Positions 11,131 to 29,161 are shown, numbered from the stretch's first letter. The stretch: DNA of 32,000 bases from Horticoccus luteus (GCF_019464535.1 NZ_CP080507.1:1050001-1082000); one strand, 5' to 3'. Notes: a model not told the origin generated them from the letters alone. Numbers and translations are program-made.

Positions 11131-11226
11131 GGCGGGCGGAGAAAGGGAGGAACGGATGGAGGGAAACCTTGAAGTGAGCCGGGCGGCTCTGCTTTGTTCA
11201 AGCCCGGCGTTCAAACCCCGCGGCCT
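11131..11226. promoter_or_regulatory. Divergent intergenic region between dapL and panC (promoters inferred)
   Basis: A 96-bp gap lies between divergent start codons. It is called from arrangement only; no motif was recognised. Confidence 0.3.
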
Positions 11227-12072
11227 ATGCAGAAAACCGAAACAGTGGTGCAGTTACGCGACTGCCTCGCTCCTTTTCACACCGCACATAAAATCGTGGC
11301 ACTCGTGCCGACGATGGGCGCGATTCACGGTGGCCACCGGGCGTTGATCGCCGCCGCCCGGGAGCGCGCCGACATCGTGGTGGTGTCGATTTTCGTCAAT
11401 CCGCTGCAGTTTGGGCTCAATGAATTGCCGGCGGCTTATCCGCGTGATCCGGAGGGCGATGAGCGGGCCTGTGCGGAGGCGGGGGTGGACGTGGTGTTCA
11501 CCCCGTCGGTGGCGGAAATTTATCCGCGCGGATTTTCGAGCTACGTGACGGAGGAGGTGGTAAGCCGACCGCTGTGCGGCGTGGCGCGGCCGGCGTATTT
11601 TCGCGGAGTCACCACGGTGACGACAAAATTGTTCAACGTCGTGCAGCCTGCGCTCGCGTTTTACGGGCAGAAAGATCTGCAGCAGGCGGCGGTCGTGCGG
11701 AAGCTGGTCGCGGATCTGGCGTTTGCGGTGGAGATTGTGGTGGTGCCGACTTGGCGAGAACCGGACGGGCTCGCGGCGGGCGTCCGCAATCCGCTGCTCA
11801 CTGCCACCCAACGGCAGGAGGCGCGGGCGATCTACGGTGCTTTGGAAGAGGCGAAGGCGATGGTCGCCAAAGGCGTGCGCAGCCCTGACCGCGTGGTCGC
11901 GGAAGCGACGCATATCCTGAGTCAACATCGGCGAGTGCGCGTGATTTATGTGGCGATCGTCGATCAGGTGACGATGGAAGCAGCGAGGGGTGAAATCATT
12001 CCGGGACGCTCGGTGCTGACGATTGCCGTCTGGATCGATGAGATCCGATTCATCGACAACGTGCTCCTGTGA
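11227..12072 (+). CDS. panC: Pantoate--beta-alanine ligase
   Basis: [15 protein letters not shown] (the PTMGxLHxGH HIGH-type motif) and [11 protein letters not shown] at 11227 is preferred over the upstream alternative start at 11194. Confidence 0.9.
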
Positions 12073-12179
12073 ACAGGCCGCCGGGTGAGGTGCAAACGCC
12101 CCGACATTTTCGTGGTGCTGGTGATAGATTTTGACAGATTTTGGTCGATAATGCGCGAAATGTGACGAGGAATATCGGC

Positions 12180-12953
12180 ATGGCCGCCAATCTTTCTGCT
12201 CCTGAAACGCTTCCGCGTTTGCTTTCGCTTTCCCACCAGCTCGGTCGTGAAGAGCGGCAGCTGGCCATCCTCGGGGAGGGCAACACTTCGGCGCGGCTGA
12301 CGGCCGGCACGTTTCTGGTCAAGGCGAGCGGTTCGAATCTTGGCACGCTCGCAGAGGCTGGAGTGACGGAGTGCCGGTTCGCGGATATCCTTGAGTTGAT
12401 CGATCAGACGGGACTCGGCGACGGAGCGGTCGATGCGGCCTTGCTGGCGGCGCGGGTGAATCCGGACGCGCGCAAGCCCTCGGTCGAAGCGATGTTTCAC
12501 GCGTGGCTGCTCACGTTGCCCGGGGTGAATTTTGTGGGGCACACGCATCCCGTGGCCGTTAACCGCATCCTCTGCACGTCACACGCGCGGGCGTTCGCCG
12601 AGCAGCGGTCGTGTCCGGACGAAATCGTGTGTTGCGGAGCGGCGTCGGTGCTCGTGCCGTATGTCGATCCGGGGCTGAAGCTCGCGGTCGCGATTCGCGC
12701 GGCGGTGCGGGCGTTTGTGGAGCGTTCGGGGCGGGCGCCGCGCGTGGTCTTACTGGAAAATCATGGGCTCATTGCGTTGGGCGGCACGCCGGAAGCGGTC
12801 ATGGCGGCGACACTCATGACGGTGAAGGCGGCCGAGGTTTATTTGGGTGCGGCATTGCTCGGGGGGCCGAACTTCCTATCGTCCGAAACGGTGGAGCGCA
12901 TCGCGGGTCGCCCCGACGAACATTATCGCGAGCAGGCGCTCGGTCTGCGTTAA
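12180..12953 (+). CDS. Class II aldolase/adducin-family protein (stand-alone)
   Basis: GEGNTSARL and FVGHTHPVAVN (metal-binding His cluster). ATG at 12180 is preceded by GAGGA at 12166-12170. The track's TTG at 12141 is a less likely start. Confidence 0.75.
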   Translation: MAANLSAPETLPRLLSLSHQLGREERQLAILGEGNTSARLTAGTFLVKASGSNLGTLAEAGVTECRFADILELIDQTGLGDGAVDAALLAARVNPDARKPSVEAMFHAWLLTLPGVNFVGHTHPVAVNRILCTSHARAFAEQRSCPDEIVCCGAASVLVPYVDPGLKLAVAIRAAVRAFVERSGRAPRVVLLENHGLIALGGTPEAVMAATLMTVKAAEVYLGAALLGGPNFLSSETVERIAGRPDEHYREQALGLR

Positions 12954-12976
12954 TTTATTCTCTCACTTTTCCCCTC

Positions 12977-15169: not shown

Positions 15170-15203
15170 GGGCGGGCGGGTTGAAGCACAGCGATAGGAG
15201 CCG

Positions 15204-15246
15204 GGACACGGAGGCATTGCCGGACGGCGTTTCTCTGTGTCCTTTG
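15204..15246 (+). terminator. Possible stem-loop terminator after the aldolase/SDR gene
   Basis: GGACACGGAG (15204-15213) pairs with CTCTGTGTCC (15233-15242), including one G:U, around a 19-nt loop. It is followed only by a short TTTG. The loop is long and the T-tract weak. Confidence 0.3.
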
Positions 15247-15253
15247 TGTCACT

Positions 15254-16174
15254 GTGGTTAACATTTCCTCCATCGGGATCGTCGGCGCGGGAGCGATCGG
15301 CGCTTATTTTGGCGCTAAGCTCGCGCGTGCGGGAGCGGACGTGCGCTTCCTCATGCGCAGCGATCTGGCGGCGGTGCGCGAGCGCGGTTTGAGGATCGAG
15401 GAACCCGCCGGCGCGTTCACGCTTTCGCCGGTGGCCGCGTTTGGCACGACGGCGGAAATGGGGGCGTGCGACCTCGTGATCATCGCGCTGAAGGCGACAG
15501 CGAACGGCGCGCTCGGGGAATTGCTGCCGCCGTTGTTGCATGAGCGGACAACGCTGCTGCCGTTGCAGAATGGGTTGGGGCCGGACGAAGCCATCGCGGC
15601 GCAGTTTGGGCCTCGACGCGTCGTGGGCGGACTTTGTTACGCGGGCATCAATCGCACGGCACCGGGGGTGATCGTTTGCGCCTCTTACGGCACGACGACG
15701 CTGGGGGAGTTTAGCGGCGCGGCAACCGAGCGCACGCGGGCGATCGCCGCGTGGTTTGAGCGAGCGGATTTGAAGCCGAGCGTGGTGGACGATCTGGCCG
15801 AGGCACGGTGGCGGAAGCTCGTTTGGAACGTGCCGTTCAACGGCCTTGCGGTGGTGGCGGACGGAGGCATCACCACCGACTTGATTCTCGCCGATCCGGA
15901 CCTCGTCGCGCGGGCCCGGCGGCTGATGGAGGAAGTGGTCGCAGTGGCCGCGGCGTTGGGCCATGCGATTCCGACAAGTTATATTGACCGGCAGTTTGTG
16001 ACGACCGCGCGGATCGGAGCTTATGCGCCGTCGAGTTTGGTGGATTACCGCGCTGGACGCGCCATCGAGATCGAGGCGATCTGGGGCGAACCGTTGCGGC
16101 GGGCGCGGGCGGCGGGTGTGGCGACACCGGAATTGGCGCAGCTTTACGAGGAGTTGAAACAGTGCGCGGGATGA
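15254..16174 (+). CDS. panE: 2-dehydropantoate 2-reductase family (ketopantoate reductase/ApbA-like) oxidoreductase
   Basis: N-terminal Rossmann IGIVGAGAIGAYFGAKLARAG and a C-terminal ApbA-type helix region (RWRKLVWNVPFN). GTG start. Substrate assignment is uncertain because this family is promiscuous. Confidence 0.7.
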   Translation: MVNISSIGIVGAGAIGAYFGAKLARAGADVRFLMRSDLAAVRERGLRIEEPAGAFTLSPVAAFGTTAEMGACDLVIIALKATANGALGELLPPLLHERTTLLPLQNGLGPDEAIAAQFGPRRVVGGLCYAGINRTAPGVIVCASYGTTTLGEFSGAATERTRAIAAWFERADLKPSVVDDLAEARWRKLVWNVPFNGLAVVADGGITTDLILADPDLVARARRLMEEVVAVAAALGHAIPTSYIDRQFVTTARIGAYAPSSLVDYRAGRAIEIEAIWGEPLRRARAAGVATPELAQLYEELKQCAG

Positions 16175-16250
16175 ACGGCGGAGCGGAGCGCGTGGCCGTT
16201 GCCGGCTCGACAGGGGATGCCCGGTCGTCTGCGCTCGCGTGGGCAACGCG

Positions 16251-17105
16251 ATGAAATACGGAGCGCACATTTATTTGTGGATCGAGCGATGGTCCGACGC
16301 GGAGGTCGGGTTGCTCGCGCGCGCGAAGAGTCTCGGGCTCGACGTGCTGGAGATCGCGGTGGGGTTGGACGTTTCGTTTTCCTCCGATTTGACGCGGCGC
16401 GCGGCGGCGGAGGCAGGGATGCGTTTGATCACGAGTCCGGGCGGCGAGTGGCCGGCGGCGGCGGATTTGTCGGCGGACGATCCGGCGCAGCGGCGGGCGG
16501 CAGTCGAGTTTCACCGGCGGGCGATCGATCAGGCGGCGGAGCTGGGCGCGCTGGCATATGCGGGGGCGATTTACGGACGGCCGGGCACGGTGTTGAAACG
16601 GCGTCCGCCGGCGGACGAATTGCCGCGCACGGCGGAAGGGCTGCGGGTGCTGGCGGATTTCGCGAAGGAGCGCGGCGTGGGGCTCGTGATCGAGCCGATG
16701 AGCCGGTTTCGCACGCATCTGATCAACACGCCGGCGCAGGCGTTGCAGTTGATCGAGCTGGCGGGCGCGCCGGGCAACGTGGGGGTGATGTTCGACACGT
16801 ATCACATGGTGACGGAGCTCCGCGATCCGGCGGCGGCGGTGCGGGCGCTGGGCGACACATTGTGGGGGCTGCACGCGTGCGAGAACGATCGTGGCGTGCC
16901 GGGCGGCGGGCTGATTCCGTGGGCGCCGCTGCTGGCGGCGGTGGGCGAGACGGCGTGCGATTACATCGGCTTAGAAGGCTACAACACGGCGCGCGGCGAT
17001 TTCGGCTGGCGGCGCGGGATGTTTCAGGACGTATGCCCGGACGGCGACGCGTTTGTGCGGGAGGGGCTGGCTTGCTTGCAAACGCAGGTGGTTGACCGGC
17101 AGTAA
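16251..17105 (+). CDS. Sugar phosphate isomerase/epimerase (xylose-isomerase-like TIM barrel; ketose 3-epimerase-like)
   Basis: MKYGAHIYLW..., LVIEPMSRF and MFDTYHM resemble the metal-ligand strands of this fold. ATG at 16251 is preferred over GTG at 16239. Confidence 0.72.
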   Translation: MKYGAHIYLWIERWSDAEVGLLARAKSLGLDVLEIAVGLDVSFSSDLTRRAAAEAGMRLITSPGGEWPAAADLSADDPAQRRAAVEFHRRAIDQAAELGALAYAGAIYGRPGTVLKRRPPADELPRTAEGLRVLADFAKERGVGLVIEPMSRFRTHLINTPAQALQLIELAGAPGNVGVMFDTYHMVTELRDPAAAVRALGDTLWGLHACENDRGVPGGGLIPWAPLLAAVGETACDYIGLEGYNTARGDFGWRRGMFQDVCPDGDAFVREGLACLQTQVVDRQ

Positions 17106-17147
17106 ACCTCGCCTTGCCTGGGAAGGCGGCGTGGCTATGCATGGGCC

Positions 17148-19154
17148 ATGCAAATTCCTCGCTGGGCGGTCGCTTCGGCCGCGTTGGTTTGCTCGGTGGC
17201 GGCGTTCGCGGCCATCGACCCGAAGAACTTCGACCCTGCGGTCAAACCGCAGGACGACTTTTACCAGTTCGCCAATGGCGGCTGGCTAAAAAACAATCCG
17301 GTCCCGCCGGCCTACAGCCGTTGGGGGGCGTTTTACGAAGTCAACGAGACCAATCTGGCCGCGTTGCACACGGTGCTTGAGCAGGCGTCCCGCGCGGAAC
17401 ATCCCAACGCGATCGAGAAGCTGGTCGGCGATTTCTACGCGAGCGGCATGGACGAGGCCGCCATCGACGCGGCGGGCCTCCAGCCGTTGCAACCGGAACT
17501 CGATCGCATCGATGCCATCAAGACGGTCGAGGACGTGCAGGCGGAGATCGCGCATCTGCACGGGCGCGCGGTGCGGGTCGGATTCTTTTTCACGTCGGAG
17601 CAGGATCCCAAGGATACGAAGATGATGATCGCGGCGGGCGGCCAGGGCGGGCTCGGGCTGCCGGACCGCGATTACTATTTCCGCGACGACGAGAAGTCGA
17701 AAACGCTGCGGATGGAATACACCGCGCACGTGGCGCGCATGCTGGAGTTGTCGGGTTGGTCGCCGGATGACGCCAAGCAGGGCGCGGACGACGTGCTCCA
17801 ACTGGAGACGGCGCTGGCGGCGGTCTCGAAGAAGCGGGTCGATCTGCGCGACCCGGTGGCGAATTATCACAAAATGTCGGCCGCCGAGCTGGCGAAGCTC
17901 GCGCCGGAGTTCGATTGGAACCGCTACTTCACGGCGCTCGACATCAAGGACGTGGGTCCGATCGACATCGGGCAGCCGGAGTTTTTCACGGGGTTCAGCA
18001 AGCAGATCAAGGACACGCCGGTCGCAGCGTGGAAGACGTATCTGCGCTGGCATTTGCTGCACGCGGCGGCGCCTTACCTGAGCAGCGCGCTGGTGAATGA
18101 GAATTTCCAGTTCTTCGACAAAACCCTCTCAGGCACGCAGGAACTGCGCGAGCGATGGAAGCGGGTGCTGGGGACGATCGACACGTACACCGGCGAGGCG
18201 CTGGGCCAGCTTTACGTGAAGGAGTTTTTTCCGCCGGAGTCGAAAGCGCGGATGTTGCAGCTCGTGGAAAACCTCCGCGCGGCGTTGCGCGATCGCTTGC
18301 ACACGCTCGAATGGATGGACGACGCGACGAAGGCCCGCGCGTTGGACAAGCTCAACGCGTTTGGCGTGAAGATCGGTTATCCCGACAAGTGGATCGACTA
18401 CAGCTCGGTGAAGATAGACCGGAAGGCCTATTGGCAGAACGTGATGAACGCGCGCGCGTTTGATCACCATCGCAGCATCGCGAAAATCGGCCAGCCGGTG
18501 GATCGCACCGAGTGGGACATGACGCCGCCGACGGTGAACGCGTATTACAACCCCACGATGAACGAGATCGTGTTTCCCGCCGGCATCCTGCAGCCGCCGT
18601 TCTTCGACGCGAAGGCGGATGATGCGGTGAACTACGGCGGCATCGGCGCGGTGATCGGCCACGAGATGACGCATGGTTTCGACGACGAAGGCCGGCAGTT
18701 CGCCGCCGACGGCAGTCTGACGGACTGGTGGACGCCAGAGAGCGCGGCGAAATTCAAGGAGCGTTCCGCGGCGATCGTGAAGCAGTTCAACGGCTATGTG
18801 GCGATCGACGATCTGCACGTGAATGGGGCGTTGACGCAGGGCGAGAACATCGCGGACCTCGGCGGATTGAAGATCGCTTATGCCGCGCTGCAAAAAGCGC
18901 TCGGCGGCAAAGAGCCGGCGAAGATCGGCGGCTTCACTGCGGCGCAGCGGTTCTTCCTGAGCTGGGCGACGGTGTGGCATACGAACATCCGCGACCAGCA
19001 ACTGCGTTTGCAGGTGAACACTGATCCGCACTCGCCGGCGCGTTTCCGCGTGAACGGGCCCGTCTCGAATTTGGAGGATTTCTACAAGGCGTTTGATGTG
19101 CCCGCAGGTGCGCCGATGCGCCGCCCGGACAACGAGCGCGTCGAGATCTGGTAA
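17148..19154 (+). CDS. pepO: M13-family zinc metallopeptidase (PepO/endothelin-converting-enzyme-like), secreted or lipid-anchored
   Basis: N-terminal signal peptide (MQIPRWAVASAALVCSVAAFAA), NAYY, the zinc motif VIGHEMTHGFDD and the third ligand motif GENIADLGG. Confidence 0.9.
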   Translation: MQIPRWAVASAALVCSVAAFAAIDPKNFDPAVKPQDDFYQFANGGWLKNNPVPPAYSRWGAFYEVNETNLAALHTVLEQASRAEHPNAIEKLVGDFYASGMDEAAIDAAGLQPLQPELDRIDAIKTVEDVQAEIAHLHGRAVRVGFFFTSEQDPKDTKMMIAAGGQGGLGLPDRDYYFRDDEKSKTLRMEYTAHVARMLELSGWSPDDAKQGADDVLQLETALAAVSKKRVDLRDPVANYHKMSAAELAKLAPEFDWNRYFTALDIKDVGPIDIGQPEFFTGFSKQIKDTPVAAWKTYLRWHLLHAAAPYLSSALVNENFQFFDKTLSGTQELRERWKRVLGTIDTYTGEALGQLYVKEFFPPESKARMLQLVENLRAALRDRLHTLEWMDDATKARALDKLNAFGVKIGYPDKWIDYSSVKIDRKAYWQNVMNARAFDHHRSIAKIGQPVDRTEWDMTPPTVNAYYNPTMNEIVFPAGILQPPFFDAKADDAVNYGGIGAVIGHEMTHGFDDEGRQFAADGSLTDWWTPESAAKFKERSAAIVKQFNGYVAIDDLHVNGALTQGENIADLGGLKIAYAALQKALGGKEPAKIGGFTAAQRFFLSWATVWHTNIRDQQLRLQVNTDPHSPARFRVNGPVSNLEDFYKAFDVPAGAPMRRPDNERVEIW

Positions 19155-19201
19155 CGTAAAACGCACCGCGTGGCCGAAAAATCGGTCGCGAAAAGAGTTA
19201 C

Positions 19202-19233
19202 AAGCGCCGTCCGGGAAAGGACGGCGCTTTTTG
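19202..19233 (+). terminator. Rho-independent terminator downstream of the M13 peptidase gene
   Basis: AAGCGCCGTCC (19202-19212) pairs perfectly with GGACGGCGCTT (19219-19229) around the loop GGGAAA, giving an 11-bp stem whose last two pairs (A19202/A19203 with T19229/T19228) use the first two T of the TTTTT run at 19228-19232. It sits 48 nt after the stop codon. Confidence 0.8.
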
Positions 19234-19429
19234 TCGGTCGCGCGGTGCAGGCGATGAAAGTAGGTCGGCGCGCTCCCACGAGAGGTTGCGGACGGCGGTG
19301 GTTGAGCGGGGGGAGCGGCGGCTGGATGAGATCTGCGGGCGTGGCGTCGGCGTCGCAAAAGGTTTGCGCCCCATGCGGCCTCGGGCAATTTCCGGGCCTT
19401 CCCGTGGAACTCGTTTCCGATAACTTTCC

Positions 19430-19507
19430 GTGAGGCGCGGCACCCTAGCTTTCGTCGGGGCGCTGGTGGTCGTTCTGCTGTTGGGCGGCGTTCGTCTGTA
19501 TCGCATC
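19430..19507 (+). other. N-terminal signal peptide or signal-anchor of the giant protein
   Basis: MRRGTLAFVGALVVVLLLGGVRLYRI has a basic n-region followed by a ~15-residue hydrophobic core. There is no obvious AxA cleavage site or lipobox. Confidence 0.6.
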
Positions 19508-22500
19508 CGGGCGGCGGAAACGGAAAGGGACAAGACACAGGCCGCATTCGCGGGCGCACCGGAAAGCGAGGCGGCGGAACCTCGCTTGGCGACGGCAGGA
19601 GACGAGGTCAAAACGCCGCGAGCGCAGGCGGAGGGGGCGGGTGCCGGCGGGGGCGCGGGGCAACGGATTTCAGCGGCGGAGGAGTTATGGCAGGAGATTC
19701 CGGCGGGGGCGTTGCGCGAGAGTTTGCTGCGGCTGGACGCGGCCGCGCGGCGGCGGGCGTTGGAGAAACTGGCGCGCTTGCACGTGCCCAAGGAAGACTA
19801 TGCAAGCCTGCGGGCGGCGGCGAATGGCGGGTTGTTTTACGCGTGTGTGTTTCCGCGTCCGCCGGACGAGACGGGCACGCGCAACGCGATGGGGCAGGGA
19901 TCGGGCGGGGCGCTCGCGGGGGCGGCGGGAGCGAGCGTGCCCATCGCGACGCCGCCGGTGTTTCACTCGAAGCCGGGATCGGCCAACGTGCTCTACCTCG
20001 ACTTCAACGGGCACACGATCACGGGCACGGCGTGGAATACGAGCAATGGCGCCGCGGCGGTTTACCAGGCGTTGCCCTACGACACGGATGGCGACGCGAC
20101 GTCGTTCAGCGATGCGGAGCAGGCGGTGATCGCGCAAGTGTGGCAGCGCGTGGCGGAGGATTATGCGCCGTTTGACGTGGACGTGACAACGGAGGAGCCG
20201 GCGGTGTTTACCTCCACGACCGGGCGTGCGGTGATCACGAAGAATGTCGATGCGAACGGCGTGGGCATGCCGTCGGGCACGGCGGGCGGCGTGGCGTGGC
20301 TGGATGTCTTTGGCGAGGCGGATTACGCGACGGCGTCATCGCCCGTGCTCATTTACTATAACAATCTGGGCAACACGCGGGCGGATTATATTGCGGAGGC
20401 GACGGCGCACGAGTTTGGGCACAATCTGAGTTTGTCGCACGACGGACAGACCAACGGCAACGAATACTACGGCGGTCATGGCAGCGGCGAAACGTCGTGG
20501 GGGCCGATCATGGGCACGGGCTACAATCGCAACGTCTCGCAGTGGTCGAAGGGCGAATATTATCTGGCGAACAACACCGAGGACGATCTGGCGATCATCT
20601 CCGGGCATCTGGGCTACCGGGCGGACGAAGCCGGCGGCACCGTCGCGACGGCCGCGGTGGCGGCGGTGAACGGCACGGTGGTCAGTGCGAGCGGCATTCT
20701 CAGCAGCGCGAGCGACAGCGACACGTTTGCGGTCTCGACGGGCGCGGGGACGCTCACGTTGAGCGCCTCGCCGTATCGCGCCGCGAGCAACACCTACGGC
20801 GGCGATGCGGACTTGAAACTGGAAGTGCTCAATGCGGCGGGGACGGTGGTCGCCTCCGCCGACCCGAGCGCCACGACGACGGTTTCGCTCAGCTATGCGG
20901 CGGCGGCGGGGACGTATTTTGTGCGGTTGACGCCGTCGAGCACGGGCACGCCGCTGGCATCGACGCCGACGGGTTATACAAGTTATGCGAGCATCGGCCA
21001 CTACACGCTGACGGGGACGATCGTCCCGGCGGCGCCGCAAATATTGGGGCCGCTGACGGCCAGCACGCCCGCGGGGGCGAATTTTAGCTATGCGATTGCA
21101 GCGACCAACTCGCCCACGAGTTATACGGCGGCGGGCCTGCCGACGGGATTAACGTGCGATGCAGGGTCGGGAGTGATCAGCGGCCGGGCGGCGGTAGCGG
21201 GCGTGTTCGCGGTCGCGCTGACGGCGACGAACGGCGTGGGCTCGGCCCAGGCGACGCTTACTCTGACGATCACGGACGCGGCGCCGGCGATCACGAGCCA
21301 GACGGGCGGCCGCACGACGGTGCCCGCAGGCGGGGTGTTGACGTTGCAAGTGGCGGCGATCAGCGCGAACGGCGCCGCGAGTTATCAGTGGAAACACAAT
21401 GGCCTCGCGGTGGCGGGCGGGACAAACAGCACGCTCACGGTTCCCAGCGCGAGCGTCGCGGGCAGCGGTTATTTTCAAGCAGTCGTCACCAACGCGATCG
21501 GCAGCACGACGAGCGCGGCGATGTTTGTGCGCGTGGCTCCGGCGGTGGCGGAGGTGCTGACGTGGGGGAAAAACGATCACGGGCAGTTGAATGAGCCGGT
21601 CGCGCTGGAAGATGCGACGGAGGTGGTCGCGGGCACTTACCACGTGCTGGCGCTCAAGTCCGACGGGACGGTCGCGGCTTGGGGCGACGACAGCAAGGGG
21701 CAGACGGACGTGCCGGCGGATCTGAGCGACGTGGTGGAAGTCGCGGCGGGGAAATATCATTCGCTCGCGTTGCTCGCCAACGGCACGGTGCGCGGCTGGG
21801 GGCTCGGCACATCCGGGCAGACGACCGCGCCGGATGGGTTGTCGGATGTCGTCGAGATTTCGGCGGGCGATTACTATTCGGTGGCGTTGAAAGCGGACGG
21901 GAGCGTGGTGGCATGGGGCGACAACGCTTATGGCCAGCGGAACGTGCCGGGCGGTTTGAGCGGGGTGATCGGCGTCGCGGCGGGCGCAGCGCATGTGCTC
22001 GCGTTGAAAGGCGACGGCACGGTGACGGCGTGGGGTTGGAACGCGAACGGACAGGCGAGCGTGCCGGGCTCGCTCGCGGGCGTCGTGGCCGTGGCGGCGG
22101 GGACGAATCATTCCGTGGCGTTGAACAGCAATGGGACGGTGACGGCGTGGGGTGCGAGCACGTTCACGAGCGGCGCGAGCGCCCTGACGGGTGTGACCGC
22201 GATCGCTGCGGGCAACAATCACTCGCTGGCGTTAAAAGCCGATGGGACGGTGAGCGGTTGGGGCACGGATACGGATGGGCAGATTGCGGGCGGCGCCGGC
22301 GTGACGACGGTGGTGGGCGTGGATGCGGGGTTGTCGTTTTCCGTGGCGTTGCGCGATGCGACGGGGGACGTGGCGCCGACGTTCACCGCGCAGCCGGTTG
22401 ACCGGGCGATTATCTCTGGCGGGAGCGCGACCTTCTCTGTGGCGACGAACGCTTCGACGGCGAGTTATGGGTGGGAGGTCGATTCCGGGAGCGGCTGGGA

Positions 22501-25500
22501 GGTGGTGGCGGAAGGGGCGCCGTTCAGCGGCGCGGCGACGACGACGTTGAGCATAGCGGACGTGACCACAGTGATGAACGGGTGGCAGTTTCGCTGTGTG
22601 GCGACGAACGCGGCGGGCAGCACGACGTCGTCGGTCGCGACACTGACCGTCGCGAAGGCAGCGCAGACGATCGCGTTCGAAGCGGTGAGCGCGAAGACGT
22701 TTGGCGATGCGGCGTTTGCGGTGAAGGCGACGGCGACGAGCGGGTTGCCGGTGGATGTGAGCGTCGTGAGCGGACCGGCGACGATGGCGAACGGGGTGGT
22801 GACGTTGACGGGCGCGGGCACGGTGACATTGCGCGCGAGCCAGGCAGGCGACGCGCGTTACGCGGCGGCGACGGATGTGAACGTGAGTTTCACGGTGGAA
22901 AAGGCGGTGCCGCTGCTGACTTGGGCCGCGCCGGCGGGGATCGTTTACGGCACGGCTTTGTCGGAAACGCAGCTCAACGCGACGGCGAGCGTGCCGGGCG
23001 TTTTCGTCTATTCGCCGGCGGCCGGAACAGTCTTGGACGCGGGGAGCGGTGCGGTGTTGAGCGTAACGTTTACGCCGGCGGAAACGGAAAATTATACGCG
23101 CGCGACGGCGACGACGACGATCGCGGTGGCGGCGGCGACGCAGACGATTTCTTACGCACCGGTCGGTGCGAAGACATTTGGCGATGCGCCGTTCATTGTG
23201 GCGGCGAGTGCGAGCAGCGGCCTGCCGGTGACGATCGTGGTCGCGGCGGGGCCGGCGAGCGTGGCGAATGGCGCGGTGACGTTGAGCGGGGCGGGCGCGG
23301 TGACGTTGGTCTTACGTCAGGCAGGCAATGCCAACTTTGCCGCGGCGCCGGACGTGCCGGTGATGTTTAGCGTGGCGAAAGACCAGCCTCTGCTCGCGTG
23401 GGAGGCGCCGGCGGCGATTGCGTATGGCACGGTGCTTTCGAGCGCGCAGCTCAATGCGACGGCGGATGTGGCGGGCACGTTTGTTTACGATCCGCCCGCG
23501 GGCACGGTGTTGGCGGCCGGCGAGGCGCAGGTGTTGAGCGTGACGTTCACGCCGGACGATGCGGCGGATTTTACGAAGGCGACGGCGACGACGACGATTA
23601 CCGTGGCGCCGGCGGCGCAGACGATCGCGGTCGACCCGATCACGGCGAAGACGTTTGGCGATGCGGCGTTTGCGGTGACTGCGACGGCGACGAGCGGGTT
23701 GCCGGTGGATGTGAGCGTCGTGAGCGGACCGGCGACGATGGCGAACGGAGTGGTAACGTTGACGGGCGCGGGCGCGGTGTCGTTGCGCGCGAGTCAGGCG
23801 GGCGATCCGAATTTCAAGGCGGCGGATGACGTGGTCGTGAGCTTCACGGTGGCGAAGGCGGGGCCTGTGCTGACGTGGAGCGCGCCGGCGGCGATTGCGT
23901 ATGGCACGGTGTTTTCGAGCGCGCAGCTCAACGCGACGGCGGATGTGGCGGGCACGTTTGTTTACGATCCGCCCGCGGGCACGGTGTTGGCGGCCGGCGA
24001 GGCGCAGGTGTTGAGCGTGACGTTCACACCGGACGATGCGGCGAATTTTACGGAGGCGACGGCGACTACGACGATTACCGTGGCGCCGGCGGCGCAGACA
24101 ATCGCGATCGACCCGATCACGGCGAAGACGTTTGGCGATGCGGCGTTTGCGGTGACTGCGACGGCGACGAGCGGGTTGCCGGTGAGCGTGAGTGTCGTGA
24201 GCGGACCAGCGACGATGGCGAACGGAGTGGTGACGTTGACGGGCGCGGGCGCGGTGTCGTTGCGCGCGAGTCAGGTGGGCGATGCGAATTTCACGGCGGC
24301 GGATGACGTGGTCGTGAGCTTCACGGTGGCGAAGGCGGGGCCGGTGCTGATGTGGAGCGCGCCGGCGGCGATTGCGTATGGCACGGCGTTGTCCACGGCG
24401 CAGCTCAACGCGACGGCGGATGTGGCGGGCACGTTTGTTTACGATCCGCCCGCGGGCACGGTGTTGGCGGCCGGCGAGGCACAAGTGTTGCGCGCGACGT
24501 TCACGCCGGACGATGCGGCGAATTTTGCGGAGGCGACGGCGACGACGACGATTACCGTGGCGCCGGCGGCGCAGACGATCGAGGTTGAGCCGATCGCGGC
24601 GAAGACGTTTGGCGATGCGGCGTTTGCGGTGACTGCGACGGCGACGAGCGGGTTGCCGGTGAGCGTGAGTGTCGTGAGCGGACCGGCGACGATGGCGAAC
24701 GGAGTGGTGACGTTGACGGGCGCGGGCACGGTGACGTTGCGCGCGAGCCAGGCAGGCGACGCGCGTTACGTGGCGGCGACGGATGTGGACGTGAGCTTCA
24801 CGGTGGCGAAGGCGGTGCCGGTGCTGACGTGGAGCGCGCCGGCGGCGATTGCGTATGGCGAAGCGTTGTCCGCGACGCAGCTCAACGCGACGGCGAGCGT
24901 GCCGGGTGCGTTTGCTTACGTTCCGGCGCTCGGGACGACACTTGGGGCAGGAGACGGGCAGGTGTTGAGCGTGACGTTCACACCGGACGATGCGGCGGAT
25001 TTTACGGAGGCGACGGCGACGACGACGATTACCGTGGCGCCGGCGGCGCAGACAATCGCGGTCGACCCGATCACGGCGAAGACGTTTGGCGATGCGGCGT
25101 TTGCGGTGACTGCGACGGCGACGAGCGGGTTGCCGGTAAGCGTGAGTGTCGTGAGCGGACCGGCGACGATGGCGAACGGAGTGGTAACGTTGACGGGCGC
25201 GGGCGCGGTGTCGTTGCGCGCGAGTCAGGCGGGCGATGCGCGTTACGTGGCGGCGACGGATGTGGACGTGAGCTTCACGGTGGCGAAGGCGGTGCCGGTG
25301 CTGACGTGGAGCGCGCCGGCGGCGATTGCGTATGGCGAAGCGTTGTCCGCGACGCAGCTCAACGCGACGGCGAGCGTGCCGGGTGCGTTTGCTTACGTTC
25401 CGGCGCTCGGGACGACACTTGGGGCAGGAGACGGGCAGGTGTTGAGCGTGACGTTCACACCGGACGATGCGGCGGATTTTACGGAGGCGACGGCGACGAC

Positions 25501-28500
25501 GACGATTACCGTGGCGCCGGCGGCGCAGACAATCGCGATCGACCCGATCACGGCGAAGACGTTTGGCGATGCGGCGTTTGCGGTGACTGCGACGGCGACG
25601 AGCGGGTTGCCGGTGGATGTGAGTGTCGTGAGCGGACCGGCGACGATGGCGAACGGAGTGGTGACGTTGACGGGCGCGGGCACGGTGACGTTGCGCGCGA
25701 GTCAGGGGGGCGATGCGAATTTCACGGCGGCGGAAGACGTGGTCGTGAGCTTCACGGTGGCGAAGGCGGTGCCGGTGCTGACGTGGAGCGCGCCGGCGGC
25801 GATTGCTTACGGCACGGCGTTGTCCTCGACGCAGCTCAACGCGACGGCGAGCGTGCCGGGGACGTTTGTTTACGATCCGGCGGCGGGCACAAAACTTGAG
25901 GCGGGGGACGCACAAGTGTTGCGCGCGATGTTTACGCCGGAAGACAGCGCGAATTACGTCTCGGCTTCGCTCACGCGTGAGATCGACGTGAAGCTCATCG
26001 CGACGCAAATCATCACACAGCCGGTTTCCGTGGTCGTGGTGGAAGGGGAGAATGCGATTTTCCGGGTCGTGGCCACGGGCGCGCCCGAGCCAACGTTTCA
26101 ATGGCAGAAAGATGGAACGCCTCTCACCGGCGCGACATCGGCGACGTTGGTGCTCGCAGCGGTGAGCGCAGATGATGCGGGGGCATTTACGGTAACGGTG
26201 GCGAATTCTGCACGCACGGTGGTGAGTCAGGAGGCAACGTTGACGGTGAATCCGATCGCGCCGGTTATTTCGGCCACGGATTTGTCGGCGGTGCAGGGCC
26301 AATCATTTGACTTCCAAATCAACGCCAACACGACGTCCGCGACGTATGGCGCGAGCGGGTTGCCGGCGGGGCTGACGGTGAACACCGCGACGGGCGCGAT
26401 CAGCGGCACACCGACGACGACGGGCAGCTTCACGGTGACGTTGAGCGCCTCCAACGCGACCAGCAGCGACAGCAAACAGATCACGCTGACGGTCCAGCCA
26501 CCGGCGCCGGTCATCACGAGCCCCGGCGCAACCGGCGGCCGCGTGGGCAGCGCGTTCACCTACACGATTGTGGCGTCCAACGGCGCCACCACTTACAGCG
26601 CGCCGTATCTGCCGGACGGGCTCACACTCAATGCGGCGACGGGCGAGATCACGGGTACGCCGACGACCGCGGGGACTTACCTCGTCGTCATCACCGCGAG
26701 CAACGTGACCGGCTCCGCGACGACGCAGCTCCAGATCACCGTGGAATCCGCCGCCAACGCGCCGCTCTACGCGGGCGCCACGTCGTTCAGCGCGGTGCAA
26801 AACACCGGCTTCGCACTGGTGCCGGCGTTCACGAACAGCCCCACCGGTTTCGCGCTCGCGAAGCTCGCCGACGGCACCGATTCGGTGCTGCCGACGGGCC
26901 TCACGTTCAACGCCACCACCGGCGTGCTCACGGGCACGCCGACGCAGGTGGGCGTCTTCACGTTTGCGCTCCGCGCCACCAACGCCGGCGGCAGTTCGAC
27001 GGTCACGTTGACGCTCACGGTCAACCCCGCGCCGGCGGCGCCGAAGATCACCAGCGCGTCGAGCGCGATGGCGACGGTCGGCGTGGCGTTCAGCTTCCAA
27101 CTCACCGCGAGCGCCACGCCCGCCGCGACGAGCTTCACGCTCGTGTCCGGCACGCTGCCCGCGGGCCTCACGCTCAACCCCGCGAGCGGCCTCATCTCCG
27201 GCACGCCGGGCGCACCGGCGCTCACGACGGTGTCGGTCGCGGCGACCAACACCGTGGGCACGGGCGCCGCGGCGCAACTGGTGTTCTCCGTGTCGCCGTC
27301 ACCGACGGCACCGGCGATCACGTCGGCGCTCGTGGCCACGGGCCAGGTCGGCACCGCGCTCAGTTATCAACTCACGGCGTCGAACACGCCCACGTCGTTC
27401 ACCCTTGTGTCCGGCACGCTGCCGGCGGGTCTCGCGTTTGACGGGGCGACAGGCGCGATCTCGGGCACGCCCACGACCGTGGGCCAGCGCCGCGTTTACT
27501 TCGCCGCGAGCAACGCCTCCGGCCGCGGCCTCGCGCTCGAAGTGCTCTTCAGCATCACCGCCGCGCCGACCGTGCCGGTGGTGACGAGCAACCCGACCGC
27601 GGAAGGGCAGGTCGGCCAGGCGTTCCTCTATATTGTCACGGGCACGAACACGCCGATCAGCTACGGCGTGACGGGCACGCTGCCCGCCGGCCTCGTGGCC
27701 GAGGAAGGCGTGATCTACGGTGTGCCCGCGCAATCGGGCACGGCGATCCTCACGCTGACCGCGACCAACGCCGACGGCACCGGCGCGGCGAAGACGCTGA
27801 CGATCACGATCCGCCCCGCGCCTGCGACGCCGGTCATCACGAGCGCGCTCAACGCCTCGGGCCGCGTGGGCACGGCGTTCGCGTATCAAGCGACCGCGAC
27901 GGAGAACGCGACCTCGTTCGTCGCGCTCGGGCTGCCCTCGGGCCTCACGATGAACAGCGCCGGCCAGATCAGCGGCACGCCGACCGCGGCGGGCACGTTC
28001 GGCGTGACGCTCCGCGCCACGAACGCCGCGGGCGCGGGCACGCCAGCGATCCTCTCGCTCGCGATCAACGCCGCCGCGCAAGCGCCGAAGCTCACGAGCG
28101 CCGCCGCGCAGGCCGGCAAAGTGCGCGTGCCCTTCACGTATCAAGCGAGCGCCGCGCCCGGTCCGATCACGAGCTACGGGTTGACCGGCACGCTGCCGCT
28201 CGGCCTCGCGTTCAACACCTCCACCGGCCTGCTCTCCGGCACGCCCGCCGAGTCGGGGGTGTTTGTCGTGACGCTGACCGCGACGGCCGACGCCGGCACG
28301 AGCCTCGGCCAGGACGTGGCGTTGTTCATCTCGCCCGCCGACGATGTGCCGGTGATCAACAGCTCCACGCGCGCCGACGGCACGGTGGACGCTGCGTTCA
28401 GCTTCACCGTCACCGCGACGAATCTGCCGGCCGCGCCGTTCCCGCCGTATGCGACGATCGACGCGATCGGGTTGCCCGACGGCCTCGCGATCAATCCCTC

Positions 28501-29161
28501 GACGGGCTTGATCCAAGGCACGCCGACGAGCGCGGGGACGTTCACCGTTTACCTCGCCGCGACGAATCTCAACGGCACCGGGCCGGTGCGCACGTTGACC
28601 CTCGTGATCAAACCCTCGCCGTCGGCGCCGATCATCAACAGTTCGCCGCAAGCCGCCGCGCAAGCGGGCGTGGCGTTCAGTTACCAGATCGGCGCGCTCA
28701 ACGGCGCGACGGCCTACGAAGTGATCGGGGCGCCCGCGTGGCTCGGCGTCAACGCGACGACCGGCGCGCTCACGGGCACGCCGACGCTGCCGGGCACGGT
28801 GACGGTGCAACTGCTCGCGAGCAACGCGACCGGCACCTCGAGCCCGCAGACGCTCACGCTCACGATCGCGCCGGCGGCGAACACGCCGGTGATCACCAGC
28901 GGCCAGGCGGCCACGGGTGCGATCGGCGCGGCGTTCAGTTACCAGATTGCCGCGACGAATACGCCGACGAGTTACATCGCGACGGGTCTGCCGGAAGGTC
29001 TGGTCTTCGACGGTGCGACCGGCCAGATCACGGGCACGCCGCAAGCCTCGGGCGAGTTCCGCGTGACGCTCACAGCCGTCAACGCCCAAGGCCCGGGCGC
29101 CGGCGCCGCTCTCGTTCTCACCATTGTTTCCAGCGTGCAGTTCATCGACGCGGGCGGATGA
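19430..29161 (+). CDS. Giant (3,243 aa) multidomain surface/secreted protein: signal-anchor, reprolysin-like metzincin protease, PPC domain, Ig/He_PIG modules, 7-bladed RCC1 propeller, 7x159-aa tandem repeats, 11x He_PIG repeats
   Basis: One uninterrupted ORF starting at GTG 19430. Domain calls come from sequence motifs and are listed as the separate features below. Confidence 0.9.
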   Translation: MRRGTLAFVGALVVVLLLGGVRLYRIRAAETERDKTQAAFAGAPESEAAEPRLATAGDEVKTPRAQAEGAGAGGGAGQRISAAEELWQEIPAGALRESLLRLDAAARRRALEKLARLHVPKEDYASLRAAANGGLFYACVFPRPPDETGTRNAMGQGSGGALAGAAGASVPIATPPVFHSKPGSANVLYLDFNGHTITGTAWNTSNGAAAVYQALPYDTDGDATSFSDAEQAVIAQVWQRVAEDYAPFDVDVTTEEPAVFTSTTGRAVITKNVDANGVGMPSGTAGGVAWLDVFGEADYATASSPVLIYYNNLGNTRADYIAEATAHEFGHNLSLSHDGQTNGNEYYGGHGSGETSWGPIMGTGYNRNVSQWSKGEYYLANNTEDDLAIISGHLGYRADEAGGTVATAAVAAVNGTVVSASGILSSASDSDTFAVSTGAGTLTLSASPYRAASNTYGGDADLKLEVLNAAGTVVASADPSATTTVSLSYAAAAGTYFVRLTPSSTGTPLASTPTGYTSYASIGHYTLTGTIVPAAPQILGPLTASTPAGANFSYAIAATNSPTSYTAAGLPTGLTCDAGSGVISGRAAVAGVFAVALTATNGVGSAQATLTLTITDAAPAITSQTGGRTTVPAGGVLTLQVAAISANGAASYQWKHNGLAVAGGTNSTLTVPSASVAGSGYFQAVVTNAIGSTTSAAMFVRVAPAVAEVLTWGKNDHGQLNEPVALEDATEVVAGTYHVLALKSDGTVAAWGDDSKGQTDVPADLSDVVEVAAGKYHSLALLANGTVRGWGLGTSGQTTAPDGLSDVVEISAGDYYSVALKADGSVVAWGDNAYGQRNVPGGLSGVIGVAAGAAHVLALKGDGTVTAWGWNANGQASVPGSLAGVVAVAAGTNHSVALNSNGTVTAWGASTFTSGASALTGVTAIAAGNNHSLALKADGTVSGWGTDTDGQIAGGAGVTTVVGVDAGLSFSVALRDATGDVAPTFTAQPVDRAIISGGSATFSVATNASTASYGWEVDSGSGWEVVAEGAPFSGAATTTLSIADVTTVMNGWQFRCVATNAAGSTTSSVATLTVAKAAQTIAFEAVSAKTFGDAAFAVKATATSGLPVDVSVVSGPATMANGVVTLTGAGTVTLRASQAGDARYAAATDVNVSFTVEKAVPLLTWAAPAGIVYGTALSETQLNATASVPGVFVYSPAAGTVLDAGSGAVLSVTFTPAETENYTRATATTTIAVAAATQTISYAPVGAKTFGDAPFIVAASASSGLPVTIVVAAGPASVANGAVTLSGAGAVTLVLRQAGNANFAAAPDVPVMFSVAKDQPLLAWEAPAAIAYGTVLSSAQLNATADVAGTFVYDPPAGTVLAAGEAQVLSVTFTPDDAADFTKATATTTITVAPAAQTIAVDPITAKTFGDAAFAVTATATSGLPVDVSVVSGPATMANGVVTLTGAGAVSLRASQAGDPNFKAADDVVVSFTVAKAGPVLTWSAPAAIAYGTVFSSAQLNATADVAGTFVYDPPAGTVLAAGEAQVLSVTFTPDDAANFTEATATTTITVAPAAQTIAIDPITAKTFGDAAFAVTATATSGLPVSVSVVSGPATMANGVVTLTGAGAVSLRASQVGDANFTAADDVVVSFTVAKAGPVLMWSAPAAIAYGTALSTAQLNATADVAGTFVYDPPAGTVLAAGEAQVLRATFTPDDAANFAEATATTTITVAPAAQTIEVEPIAAKTFGDAAFAVTATATSGLPVSVSVVSGPATMANGVVTLTGAGTVTLRASQAGDARYVAATDVDVSFTVAKAVPVLTWSAPAAIAYGEALSATQLNATASVPGAFAYVPALGTTLGAGDGQVLSVTFTPDDAADFTEATATTTITVAPAAQTIAVDPITAKTFGDAAFAVTATATSGLPVSVSVVSGPATMANGVVTLTGAGAVSLRASQAGDARYVAATDVDVSFTVAKAVPVLTWSAPAAIAYGEALSATQLNATASVPGAFAYVPALGTTLGAGDGQVLSVTFTPDDAADFTEATATTTITVAPAAQTIAIDPITAKTFGDAAFAVTATATSGLPVDVSVVSGPATMANGVVTLTGAGTVTLRASQGGDANFTAAEDVVVSFTVAKAVPVLTWSAPAAIAYGTALSSTQLNATASVPGTFVYDPAAGTKLEAGDAQVLRAMFTPEDSANYVSASLTREIDVKLIATQIITQPVSVVVVEGENAIFRVVATGAPEPTFQWQKDGTPLTGATSATLVLAAVSADDAGAFTVTVANSARTVVSQEATLTVNPIAPVISATDLSAVQGQSFDFQINANTTSATYGASGLPAGLTVNTATGAISGTPTTTGSFTVTLSASNATSSDSKQITLTVQPPAPVITSPGATGGRVGSAFTYTIVASNGATTYSAPYLPDGLTLNAATGEITGTPTTAGTYLVVITASNVTGSATTQLQITVESAANAPLYAGATSFSAVQNTGFALVPAFTNSPTGFALAKLADGTDSVLPTGLTFNATTGVLTGTPTQVGVFTFALRATNAGGSSTVTLTLTVNPAPAAPKITSASSAMATVGVAFSFQLTASATPAATSFTLVSGTLPAGLTLNPASGLISGTPGAPALTTVSVAATNTVGTGAAAQLVFSVSPSPTAPAITSALVATGQVGTALSYQLTASNTPTSFTLVSGTLPAGLAFDGATGAISGTPTTVGQRRVYFAASNASGRGLALEVLFSITAAPTVPVVTSNPTAEGQVGQAFLYIVTGTNTPISYGVTGTLPAGLVAEEGVIYGVPAQSGTAILTLTATNADGTGAAKTLTITIRPAPATPVITSALNASGRVGTAFAYQATATENATSFVALGLPSGLTMNSAGQISGTPTAAGTFGVTLRATNAAGAGTPAILSLAINAAAQAPKLTSAAAQAGKVRVPFTYQASAAPGPITSYGLTGTLPLGLAFNTSTGLLSGTPAESGVFVVTLTATADAGTSLGQDVALFISPADDVPVINSSTRADGTVDAAFSFTVTATNLPAAPFPPYATIDAIGLPDGLAINPSTGLIQGTPTSAGTFTVYLAATNLNGTGPVRTLTLVIKPSPSAPIINSSPQAAAQAGVAFSYQIGALNGATAYEVIGAPAWLGVNATTGALTGTPTLPGTVTVQLLASNATGTSSPQTLTLTIAPAANTPVITSGQAATGAIGAAFSYQIAATNTPTSYIATGLPEGLVFDGATGQITGTPQASGEFRVTLTAVNAQGPGAGAALVLTIVSSVQFIDAGG
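19951..20620 (+). other. Reprolysin/ADAM-like (M12B-type) metzincin catalytic domain
   Basis: The zinc motif HEFGHNLSLSHD lies at 20408-20443 (aa 327-338). Flanking blocks VLYLDFNGHTITGTAWN, VAEDYAPFDVDVTT and SWGPIMGTGY...WSKGEYY are typical of bacterial Reprolysin_4-like proteins. Confidence 0.75.
20621..21025 (+). other. Bacterial pre-peptidase C-terminal (PPC)-like beta-sandwich domain
   Basis: The sequence SDSDTFAVSTGAGTLTLSASPY...GDADLKLEVLNAAGTVVASAD...GTYFVRLTP...IGHYTLTGTI follows the PPC pattern (DxDxF..., D.dL.l.d..G, G.Y.v.V). Confidence 0.6.
21026..21275 (+). other. He_PIG (putative Ig, dystroglycan/cadherin-like) domain, isolated copy
   Basis: PAGANFSYAIAATNSPTSYTAAGLPTGLTCDAGSGVISGRAAVAGVFAVALTATN matches the Y-x-A...GLPxGL...tGxisGtP..xGxf core. 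Confidence 0.6.
21276..21550 (+). other. Ig-like (I-set-type) domain
   Basis: GGVLTLQVAAISANGAASYQWKHNGLAVAGGTNSTLTVPSASVAGSGYFQAVVTNAIGSTTS shows the classic YQW-x-NG ... L.i......G.Y.c.v.N pattern. Confidence 0.55.
21551..22357 (+). repeat. Seven RCC1-like repeats (a complete beta-propeller), about 38 aa per blade
   Basis: The unit [V/I]AAG..H[S/V]LAL...GTV.[A/G]WG....GQ...P occurs seven times: WGKNDHGQLN, AAWGDDSKGQTD, RGWGLGTSGQTT, VAWGDNAYGQRN, TAWGWNANGQAS, TAWGASTFTSGAS, SGWGTDTDGQIA. Confidence 0.8.
22358..22657 (+). other. Ig-like domain
   Basis: FTAQPVDRAIISGGSATFSVATNASTASYGWEVD...LSIADVTTVMNGWQFRCVATNAAGSTTS. Confidence 0.5.
22658..25996 (+). repeat. Seven in-frame tandem repeats of exactly 477 bp (159 aa); each unit consists of two ~80-aa beta-sandwich modules
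   Basis: Units start at 22658, 23135, 23612, 24089, 24566, 25043 and 25520. Module A reads AAQTIa.dPi.AKTFGDAAFAVTATATSGLPV.VSVVSGPATMANGVVTLTGAG.V.LRASQAGD. Module B reads P.LTWsAPAAIAYGtaLS..QLNATA.V.GtFvYdP.aGTvL.AG..QVLsVTFTPdDaanf, resembling the YG-containing MBG (YGX-type) domain. Positions 24761-25060 are 100% identical to 25238-25537. Confidence 0.92.
25997..26251 (+). other. Ig-like (I-set-type) domain
   Basis: ITQPVSVVVVEGENAIFRVVATGAPEPTFQWQKDGTPLTGATSATLVLAAVSADDAGAFTVTVANSA. Confidence 0.6.
26252..29158 (+). repeat. Array of eleven diverged He_PIG (putative Ig) domains, about 88 aa each, extending to the C-terminus
   Basis: The recurrent pattern is P.APvITS....G.vG.aFsYqi.AtN.PTSy...GLPaGL.fn..TG.isGTPt..G.f.vtl.AtN..G.g...L.ltI. 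The copies are diverged at both DNA and protein level, unlike the 477-bp units. Confidence 0.75.

Follow-up and report, generated by a model that had tools for sequence, protein, structure and literature searches.

A mosaic 477-bp tandem array encoding predicted immunoglobulin-like domain pairs in a giant protein of Horticoccus luteus

Periscope Proteins are single-chain surface proteins whose stalks consist of tandem, highly identical folded domains (PMC8201768, PMC9704523). The stalk DNA contains long, highly similar repeats that allow intragenic recombination and changes in repeat number, and strain-to-strain variation in repeat number is a defining property of these proteins (PMC8201768, PMC9704523). 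In this study, we have analyzed a 32,000-nucleotide stretch of the Horticoccus luteus genome (GCF_019464535.1, NZ_CP080507.1:1050001-1082000; the whole stretch is referred to as the window, and positions are counted from its first letter), in which an open reading frame (ORF) for a protein of 3,243 amino acids (aa) contains seven tandem units of exactly 477 bp, designated U1 to U7. We show that different parts of these units have different histories.

The nearest architectural analogy is with SasG of Staphylococcus aureus and Aap of S. epidermidis, which are built from a two-domain E-G5 unit (PMC8201768, PMC9704523). Like the protein described here, SasG and Aap are single chains with a tandem two-domain array, long and highly similar DNA repeats, and a functional domain at one end, and their high DNA identity is considered to permit intragenic recombination, with repeats being gained or lost (PMC8201768, PMC9704523). 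The folds differ, however, since the units here are predicted to consist of two immunoglobulin (Ig)-like beta-sandwiches, A and B, instead of E and G5 domains; moreover, SasG and Aap are LPXTG-anchored proteins of host-associated, Gram-positive bacteria with a documented variation of 3 to 17 repeats, whereas the window comes from an environmental verrucomicrobium. Other Periscope Proteins include Rib/Alpha C, Sgo_0707 (SHIRT domains), and the BIg repeats of Gram-negative inverse autotransporters (PMC8201768, PMC9704523). In these proteins, folded repeats joined by short linkers form rods, and Ig-like folds dominate the class; unlike the array of seven A-B pairs described here, with its gradient of identity from interior to edge, the arrays of these proteins usually have single-domain units and are often more than 90% identical throughout. 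Likewise, fibrillar adhesins and giant repetitive surface proteins combine a long stalk of beta-sandwich repeats with a head domain and show fast stalk evolution (PMC9210967); the head here, however, is a predicted metalloprotease with an RCC1 propeller and not a known adhesive domain.

Periscope Proteins have been screened for by searching for repeats of more than 50 residues with at least 80% identity (PMC8201768, PMC9704523). The repeats of the array are 159 aa long, with a mean column identity of 86% over the seven units, and the interior units are clearly within this range at 80 to 97% aa identity, whereas the U1/U2 edge falls below it. Independently folding globular domains, a further property of the class, are indicated here by structure prediction and structural comparison only (AlphaFold2 [AF2] and Foldseek). 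We refer to the array as Periscope-like, an analogy drawn from one sequence that makes no claim of proven membership.

Geometry and mosaic similarity of the seven units

Tandem Repeats Finder (TRF) reported a single array (positions 22646 to 25890; period, 477; 6.8 copies; 86% matches; score, 4303), and the seven-unit phasing given in a preliminary description of this DNA, with starts at 22658 + 477k and every unit exactly 477 bp long, was reproduced. The seven units were aligned by MAFFT with zero gaps, all of them lay in frame 0 of the ORF, and matches to a hidden Markov model (HMM) of the unit covered profile positions 1 to 159 in 7 of 7 units; the array spans 3.34 kb. Self-comparison of the window by blastn produced six clean diagonals, with lags from 477 x 1 up to 477 x 6 (77 to 86.5% identity; E = 0), and ungapped nucleotide identities between units ranged from 68% (U2 versus U7) up to 97.5% (U5 versus U6). 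At the protein level, neighboring units from U1/U2 to U6/U7 were 63, 75, 92, 80, 97, and 78% identical, with lower values (62 to 79%) for the units at the array edges. Homogenization is specific to the 477-bp array within the giant gene, since the other repeats of the same gene, those of RCC1 and He_PIG type, were only 64 to 73% identical in the self-comparison.

The preliminary description had held that similarity among the units is mosaic rather than tree-like, and this was borne out by the pairwise homoplasy index (PHI) test, half-unit identity matrices, synonymous sites, segment trees, and a tract test. The shared peptide segments on which the claim was based were all recovered from the translated units: TVTLRASQAGDARY is common to U1 and U5, AVSLRASQ is carried by U3, U4, and U6, VDVSVV is seen in U1, U3, and U7 and VSVSVV in U4, U5, and U6, the ADVAGTFVYDPPAGTVLAAGEAQVL block is found in U2 to U4, and ASVPGAFAYVPALGTTLGAGDGQVL is found in U5 and U6. 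There are 210 variable sites in the unit alignment, 80 of them parsimony informative, and the patterns visibly change partner along the unit. The PHI was 0.288, compared with 0.364 +/- 0.012 in permuted alignments, and none of 5000 permutations gave a value as low (z = -6.3; p < 2e-4).

When the units were split at nucleotide (nt) 240, the identity matrices and trees of the two halves disagreed. The clearest mosaic junction is the A/B boundary of U2, whose two halves have very different affinities, and a similar change is seen in U7 (Table 1); between U5 and U6, identity rose from 95% in the first half to 100% in the second. These matrices also refined the earlier view that U2 and the edges of U1 and U7 are the most diverged parts of the array: in U2 it is the first half that is diverged (68% identity to the others), and in U1 and U7 it is the second half (69 to 73% and 68 to 78%, respectively, to the other units).

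Synonymous sites gave the same picture. The proportion of synonymous differences (pS) between U2 and U3 was 0.417 in the A half and 0.089 in the B half (Fisher p = 3.4e-5), the corresponding values for U3 and U7 were 0.047 and 0.413 (Fisher p = 4.9e-7), and the contrast was also significant for U4-U7 (p = 1.3e-5) and U1-U5 (p = 4.8e-4). Synonymous divergence between the halves of one unit pair thus showed a 5- to 9-fold contrast, with p values from 5e-7 to 5e-4, the direction of which flipped from pair to pair: it was high in A and low in B for U2-U3 and low in A and high in B for U3-U7 and U4-U7. Because the synonymous contrast is opposite in different pairs, protein-level selection is ruled out as the cause of the mosaic. 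Ratios of nonsynonymous to synonymous divergence (dN/dS) between units, another of the checks proposed for this array, were 0.26 to 0.74, with synonymous divergence (dS) among units of up to 0.75. Average-linkage trees of four unit segments changed topology along the unit, and a GENECONV-style permutation test detected clustered concordant sites in 16 of the 21 unit pairs at p < 0.01, with the U5-U6 tract being globally significant. The phylogenetic incongruence along the unit holds at synonymous sites, which is the mark of concerted evolution.

Runs of perfect identity were found at lags of 477 bp (300, 95, and 88 bp), 954 bp (83 and 76 bp), 1431 bp (117 and 90 bp), and 1908 bp (85 bp), the perfect tracts at these lags ranging overall from 65 to 300 bp; only one perfect repeat was longer than 120 bp. 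The longest of these runs is the 300-bp duplicate of the preliminary description, which was verified by exact string comparison at 300 of 300 bases and has a mismatch at either end. The reported G/A difference at 25061/25538 was also confirmed, and a further 76 identical bases follow it. Even with 97.5% identity, a perfect run of 300 bp from a given start has a probability of only approximately 5e-4, and in the permutation test the concordant U5-U6 tract (unit nt 196 to 477) had a global p value of < 2e-4. Over these 282 bp there are 0 differences between U5 and U6, compared with 12 differences over the preceding 195 bp. U6 is therefore a hybrid, resembling the U3/U4/U7 type in its left 195 bp and identical to U5 over the 282 bp on its right, and a hybrid of this type is exactly what unequal crossover makes.

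On the opposite strand, an antisense ORF of 996 aa (23312-26302, minus strand) covers most of the array. Since the domain and homology evidence in this region is all on the plus strand, this ORF is probably a by-product of the high-GC repetitive sequence.

Recombination history and competing explanations

Unequal crossover or gene conversion, which had been put forward as the source of the mosaic, is supported by the PHI test, the synonymous tests, the discordant halves, and the U5/U6 tract. We consider it likely, with a probability of roughly 80%, that these sequences form an array of two-domain units in a rod-forming repeat region and that the units are kept similar by intragenic homologous recombination. 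The simplest cause would be homologous recombination between misaligned units, that is, unequal sister-chromatid exchange together with gene conversion. A homogenized interior with diverged edges is the classical signature of unequal exchange in tandem arrays, and RecA-type recombination needs only a few tens of bases, so that the perfect tracts of this array are far longer than required.

The seven-unit array probably arose when an ancestral A-B pair was amplified. Rounds of homologous recombination between units out of register, by unequal crossover and gene conversion and possibly together with replication slippage, would then have remodeled it again and again. Each event would overwrite part of one unit, over tens to hundreds of bases, with the sequence of another, with the outcome that the interior would stay similar, different stretches of a unit would have different nearest relatives, and U1-B, U2-A, and U7-B would be left diverged; the newest event would be the one that gave rise to the U6 hybrid. 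Since there are many tracts of perfect identity at every register, the gain or loss of whole 477-bp units would also be possible, and we postulate that the length of the protein could vary in the manner of a Periscope Protein.

Several points weigh against this reading. The seven-copy count is known from one assembled sequence of one strain. The Hudson-Kaplan minimum number of recombination events (Rm) of at least 18 is an overestimate at these divergences, since recurrent mutation also makes incompatible site pairs, and some concordant runs (unit nt 20 to 95) may partly reflect constraint common to all interior units. As for the rod, the structure prediction covers one unit only, and the protein has an N-terminal hydrophobic segment and no recognized C-terminal anchor, such that an uncleaved anchor would place the head proximal to the membrane.

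One alternative concerns the diverged segments U2-A, U1-B, and U7-B, which could have been converted from A/B-domain genes elsewhere in the genome. A and B are common modules, related genomes carry several giant proteins that contain them, and one metagenome-assembled genome (MAG) encodes two paralogues that carry the head (L002 and L003, described below); in addition, U2-A is equally distant from all other A halves. However, a scan with the unit-profile HMM found no further A or B copies in the 32-kb window outside the array, and divergence at the edges is also expected from purely intra-array unequal exchange. We regard such ectopic donors as unlikely.

It is also rather improbable that the array is an artifact of assembly or polishing, whereby the true number of units would be different or the 300-bp duplicate and some of the mosaic tracts would have arisen by collapse, misjoining, or short-read polishing. 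The 300-bp perfect repeat does form a loop, X-R-(Y-R)n-Z, whose passes cannot be counted by short reads, and the inability of short reads to resolve such arrays has been stressed for Periscope Proteins (PMC8201768, PMC9704523). Nevertheless, the seven units are all exactly 477 bp long, are in frame, and each carry private substitutions; there is but a single perfect repeat of more than 120 bp, and the mosaic tracts are 5 to 30% diverged, which is not what an assembler would invent. Furthermore, the gene lies on a contig of 4,320,198 bp, which suggests a long-read or finished assembly, and the publicly annotated product is likewise 3,243 aa long. One remaining risk is that an error of assembly or polishing between U5 and U7 has gone unnoticed, and for annotation and assembly purposes the analysis marks a locus whose unit count merits long-read checking.

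The last alternative, a simple duplication tree without recombination in which uneven constraint and recurrent mutation produce the mosaic look, can draw on the constraint that the dN/dS values show, on the conservation of unit nt 20 to 95 in all interior units, and on dS values that allow multiple hits and so inflate four-gamete incompatibilities, but it is scarcely credible: it predicts equal synonymous divergence across the halves in every pair, the opposite of what was found, site-specific constraint cannot yield a severalfold contrast that runs in opposite directions in different pairs, and it is rejected both by the PHI test, which is robust to rate heterogeneity, and by the abrupt change from 12 differences to none between U5 and U6.

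Predicted fold, family, and role of the repeat unit

By prediction, each unit consists of two Ig-like beta-sandwich domains, A followed by B. With a 100-sequence alignment, AF2 modeled one unit as two all-beta domains with a predicted local distance difference test (pLDDT) score of 97.4 and a predicted template modeling (pTM) score of 0.82; when the alignment consisted of the seven units alone, the model was poor (pLDDT, 54.6). Foldseek comparison of the predicted structure with the PDB returned tandem Ig-like pairs, namely, InlK, CEACAM5, the Sap S-layer protein, cadherins, NCAM, GhpA (grappling-hook protein), and Bap, with E values from 4e-5; the template modeling (TM) scores were low (0.3 to 0.43) because of inter-domain geometry.

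Neither domain could be placed in a curated family. Domain A (aa 1 to ~80) had no Pfam, NCBIfam, or PDB sequence match, and the whole unit had no match in NCBIfam or, by sequence search, in the PDB. Domain B (aa ~80 to 159) gave only sub-threshold Pfam matches to Ig domains of the HYDIN/CFAP65 type. Assignment of B to the HYDIN/CFAP65/VesB-like Ig families (PF22544 and PF24507) was rejected, since single units scored 13.8 to 21.3 bits against cutoffs of 25.5 to 27; the whole-protein score passes only by summing partial matches, with 0 stretches passing alone, and B arrays reach the Pfam whole-protein thresholds for these eukaryotic ciliary Ig families in this way only. As judged from these scores, the likeness of B to these families is a resemblance and not membership. 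An assignment to the MBG families (PF18676, MBG_2; PF18887, MBG_3) was likewise discarded, with no match at E <= 1 in single units and none for the whole protein; by contrast, the L002 homologue scored 663 bits for MBG_2.

The unit profile matched 31,096 representative proteins at E <= 1e-3, 19,943 at E <= 1e-10, and 6,497 at E <= 1e-30, and many of these are 2,000 to 7,000 aa long with 10 to 62 copies. Domain B occurs alone as a tandem repeat of ~80 aa in many other proteins. Among the best 150 matches, a long, strictly alternating (AB)n array was found only in the window protein; because the others show runs of A or runs of B, the amplified unit is a two-domain super-repeat of two common, uncurated Ig-like modules. 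Almost identical copies are frequent in arrays of these domains, a domain pair with at least 95% identity being present in 28 of 163. The homologue search covered proteins of up to ~1.75 times the query length (with queries of 640, 159, and 84 aa, the longest proteins listed had 1,114, 279, and 147 aa, respectively), and for this reason its matches to the repeat unit looked like fragments; the giant relatives came from the search of representative proteins.

We infer that the 14 consecutive beta-sandwich domains would act as an extended rod or spacer between the M12 and RCC1 head and the run of He_PIG domains. The short, proline-containing linkers that join the domains (KAVPVLTW and VAPAAQTI) are consistent with a rod. 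An Ig-like domain contributes ~4 nm, and on this basis the 14 domains would span approximately 50 to 60 nm. Projection of the protease and propeller head away from the cell by such a rod would depend on how the protein is oriented. Given the tandem Ig-like fold predicted here, the protein stalk of the preliminary description may reasonably be inferred.

A bolder proposal, which we put forward only tentatively, is that the array forms a length-variable stalk of the Periscope type in a free-living, Gram-negative verrucomicrobium, with a super-repeat of A/B hetero-pairs and, instead of an adhesin, an M12 and RCC1 head. If this is true, recombination-tuned surface projections would extend from host-associated pathogens to environmental bacteria and to the display of enzymes, and if the copy number is variable, the Periscope concept itself would extend beyond pathogens. 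The array is nevertheless of a kind that, although real, is familiar from long, repetitive bacterial surface proteins, and it reveals no new mechanism; its novelties are modest and comprise the hetero-pair super-repeat, two uncurated domain families, and a protease-bearing head. It provides a clean, statistically supported case of concerted evolution in a coding tandem array, in a phylum in which such proteins are essentially unstudied, and it draws attention to A and B as domains that match more than thirty thousand representative proteins, have no dedicated Pfam or NCBIfam model, and have no structure that is detectable by sequence.

The giant protein, its relatives, and its neighborhood

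The giant protein is 100% identical over its full length to a database entry (P0328, NCBI), for which the same start and stop are annotated. In its N-terminal part, the domain order is a hydrophobic segment, a low-complexity linker, an M12 metallopeptidase, a PPC-like (pre-peptidase C-terminal) region, He_PIG, Ig, and the RCC1 propeller; this is followed by Ig, seven A-B pairs, an I-set Ig domain, and twelve He_PIG domains (Table 1).

Table 1. Features of the giant gene and its 477-bp array
Feature	Position	Strand	Evidence or remark
Giant ORF, 3,243 aa, GTG start	19430-29161	+	ORF list, translation, Pfam scan
N-terminal hydrophobic segment, LAFVGALVVVLLLGGV after MRRGT	19445-19495	+	Read from translation
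Zinc-binding motif HEFGHNLSLSH (HExxHxxxxxH), aa 327-337	20408-20440	+	Translation
RCC1-repeat beta-propeller, six blades, aa ~653-960	21386-22309	+	Pfam RCC1_2, six stretches, E = 2.8e-53; WD40_RLD
Ig domain before array, similar to the one after it	~22354-22657	+	Local alignment of the two flanking Ig domains
Array U1-U7, 159 aa per unit	22658-25996	+	TRF, ungapped identity matrix, MAFFT, self-blastn, HMM, AF2
Unit starts, U1-U7	22658, 23135, 23612, 24089, 24566, 25043, 25520	+	
Domain A (unit nt 1-240) and domain B (unit nt 241-477)	Every unit of array	+	
U2 A half	23135-23374	+	~68% identical to every other A half
U2 B half	23375-23611	+	92.8% identical to U3 B half
Duplicate copy 1 (U5 nt 196-477 + U6 nt 1-18)	24761-25060	+	Exact comparison, mismatch-bounded extension
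Duplicate copy 2 (U6 nt 196-477 + U7 nt 1-18)	25238-25537	+	Exact comparison, mismatch-bounded extension
U7 A half	25520-25759	+	96.7% identical to U4 A half
U7 B half, diverged edge of array	25760-25996	+	68-78% identical to other B halves
I-set/Ig_3 domain directly after array, aa 2193-2273	26006-26248	+	Pfam Ig_3, I-set
Twelve diverged He_PIG (putative Ig) domains to C terminus	26264-29149	+	Pfam He_PIG, 12 stretches, E = 1.8e-94

The head is assigned, by its zinc-binding motif and by family homology, as an M12 (reprolysin-like) zinc metallopeptidase. The Pfam models Reprolysin_5 and Reprolysin_3 were just sub-threshold (22.6 versus 27 and 21.6 versus 22.4, respectively), and the N-terminal 640 aa had 2,407 homologues at E <= 1e-10, the best reaching 1e-185, several of which are named M12 family metallo-peptidase by their sources; the head homologues carry PF13582 and PF13688. 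The N-terminal hydrophobic segment may be a Sec signal or may serve as a signal-anchor. At the C terminus, no sorting signal was recognized in the translation or with Pfam and NCBIfam, and a weak match to a type IX secretion system (T9SS) tail at aa 456 to 501 lies inside the PPC-like region, away from the C terminus.

The twelve He_PIG copies are only 66 to 73% identical at the nucleotide level. A shift in composition coincides with them: positions 26001 to 29000 of the window, within the same gene, have a GC content of 0.71 to 0.72 and a GC skew of approximately -0.02 to -0.07, compared with a GC content of 0.61 to 0.69 and a skew of +0.06 to +0.27 in the rest of the window. The shift could reflect amino acid composition or a different origin of this part of the gene.

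The host is an Opitutaceae-like verrucomicrobium, and the best matches to the head were in Opitutus, Nibricoccus, and Lacunisphaera genomes and MAGs. A scan with the 1,076-aa head found no homologue with more than 67% identity across 185,579 species genomes and the metagenome collection, the best values being 57% among genomes and 67% for a short metagenome fragment. The giant protein is a singleton in its 90% cluster, the neighboring housekeeping proteins are singletons or have only short Logan fragments as cluster relatives, and exact look-ups for the giant protein and its neighbors on other contigs gave no match.

Among 161 loci retrieved, the A/B module was present in only three (L002, L007, and L068). 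The closest full-length homologue, L002 (MAG 'Verrucomicrobia bacterium SZAS-20', 9995-19720), is 3,241 aa long, compared with 3,243 aa here, and shares the M12 peptidase, PPC, He_PIG, Ig, RCC1, Ig, and first A domains, with 55% identity over ~1,190 aa. Like the window protein, it has seven A domains; unlike it, L002 has a stalk in which A domains are mixed with 10 MBG_2 and 4 MBG_3 domains, a 477-bp array and a He_PIG tail are both missing, and its repeats are short (216 and 240 bp only). There is no synteny between the L002 locus and the window. The same MAG encodes a paralogue, L003, with 1,968 aa and a Cadherin_5/Big_9 stalk. As seen from the different stalks that the L002 and L003 heads carry, the head is conserved, stalks are swapped or expanded by lineage, and the 477-bp array is lineage specific. 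The similar lengths of L002 and the window protein, despite their different stalk content, hint at selection on overall length. Of the seven units, U1 is the one most similar to the first A domain of L002 (42 identical residues, versus 34 to 39 for the other units), which weakly suggests that U1 is the positional founder of the array.

The genes around the giant gene are mostly housekeeping genes (ptsI-like, panC, panE, ispD, ispF, and a GHMP kinase gene), with a few ORFs lacking a Pfam family. A major facilitator superfamily (MFS) transporter gene and a family 2 glycosyltransferase (GT2) gene lie downstream, and directly upstream, on the same strand and at a distance of 276 bp, is a gene for an M13 (neprilysin/PepO-type) metallopeptidase (17148-19154); the L002 homologue has no M13 neighbor. 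A scan for promoters and terminators gave no more sites than were found in shuffled sequence. The Pfam scan of the neighbors, which included no search of a defense- or variation-specific library, gave no sign of a diversity-generating retroelement or invertase. Further upstream, two overlapping plus-strand ORFs in different frames (12141-12953 and 12611-15169) each match class II aldolase; the second also has a short-chain dehydrogenase domain and is overlapped by an antisense ORF of 1,015 aa without a Pfam match, and its real start probably lies further downstream.

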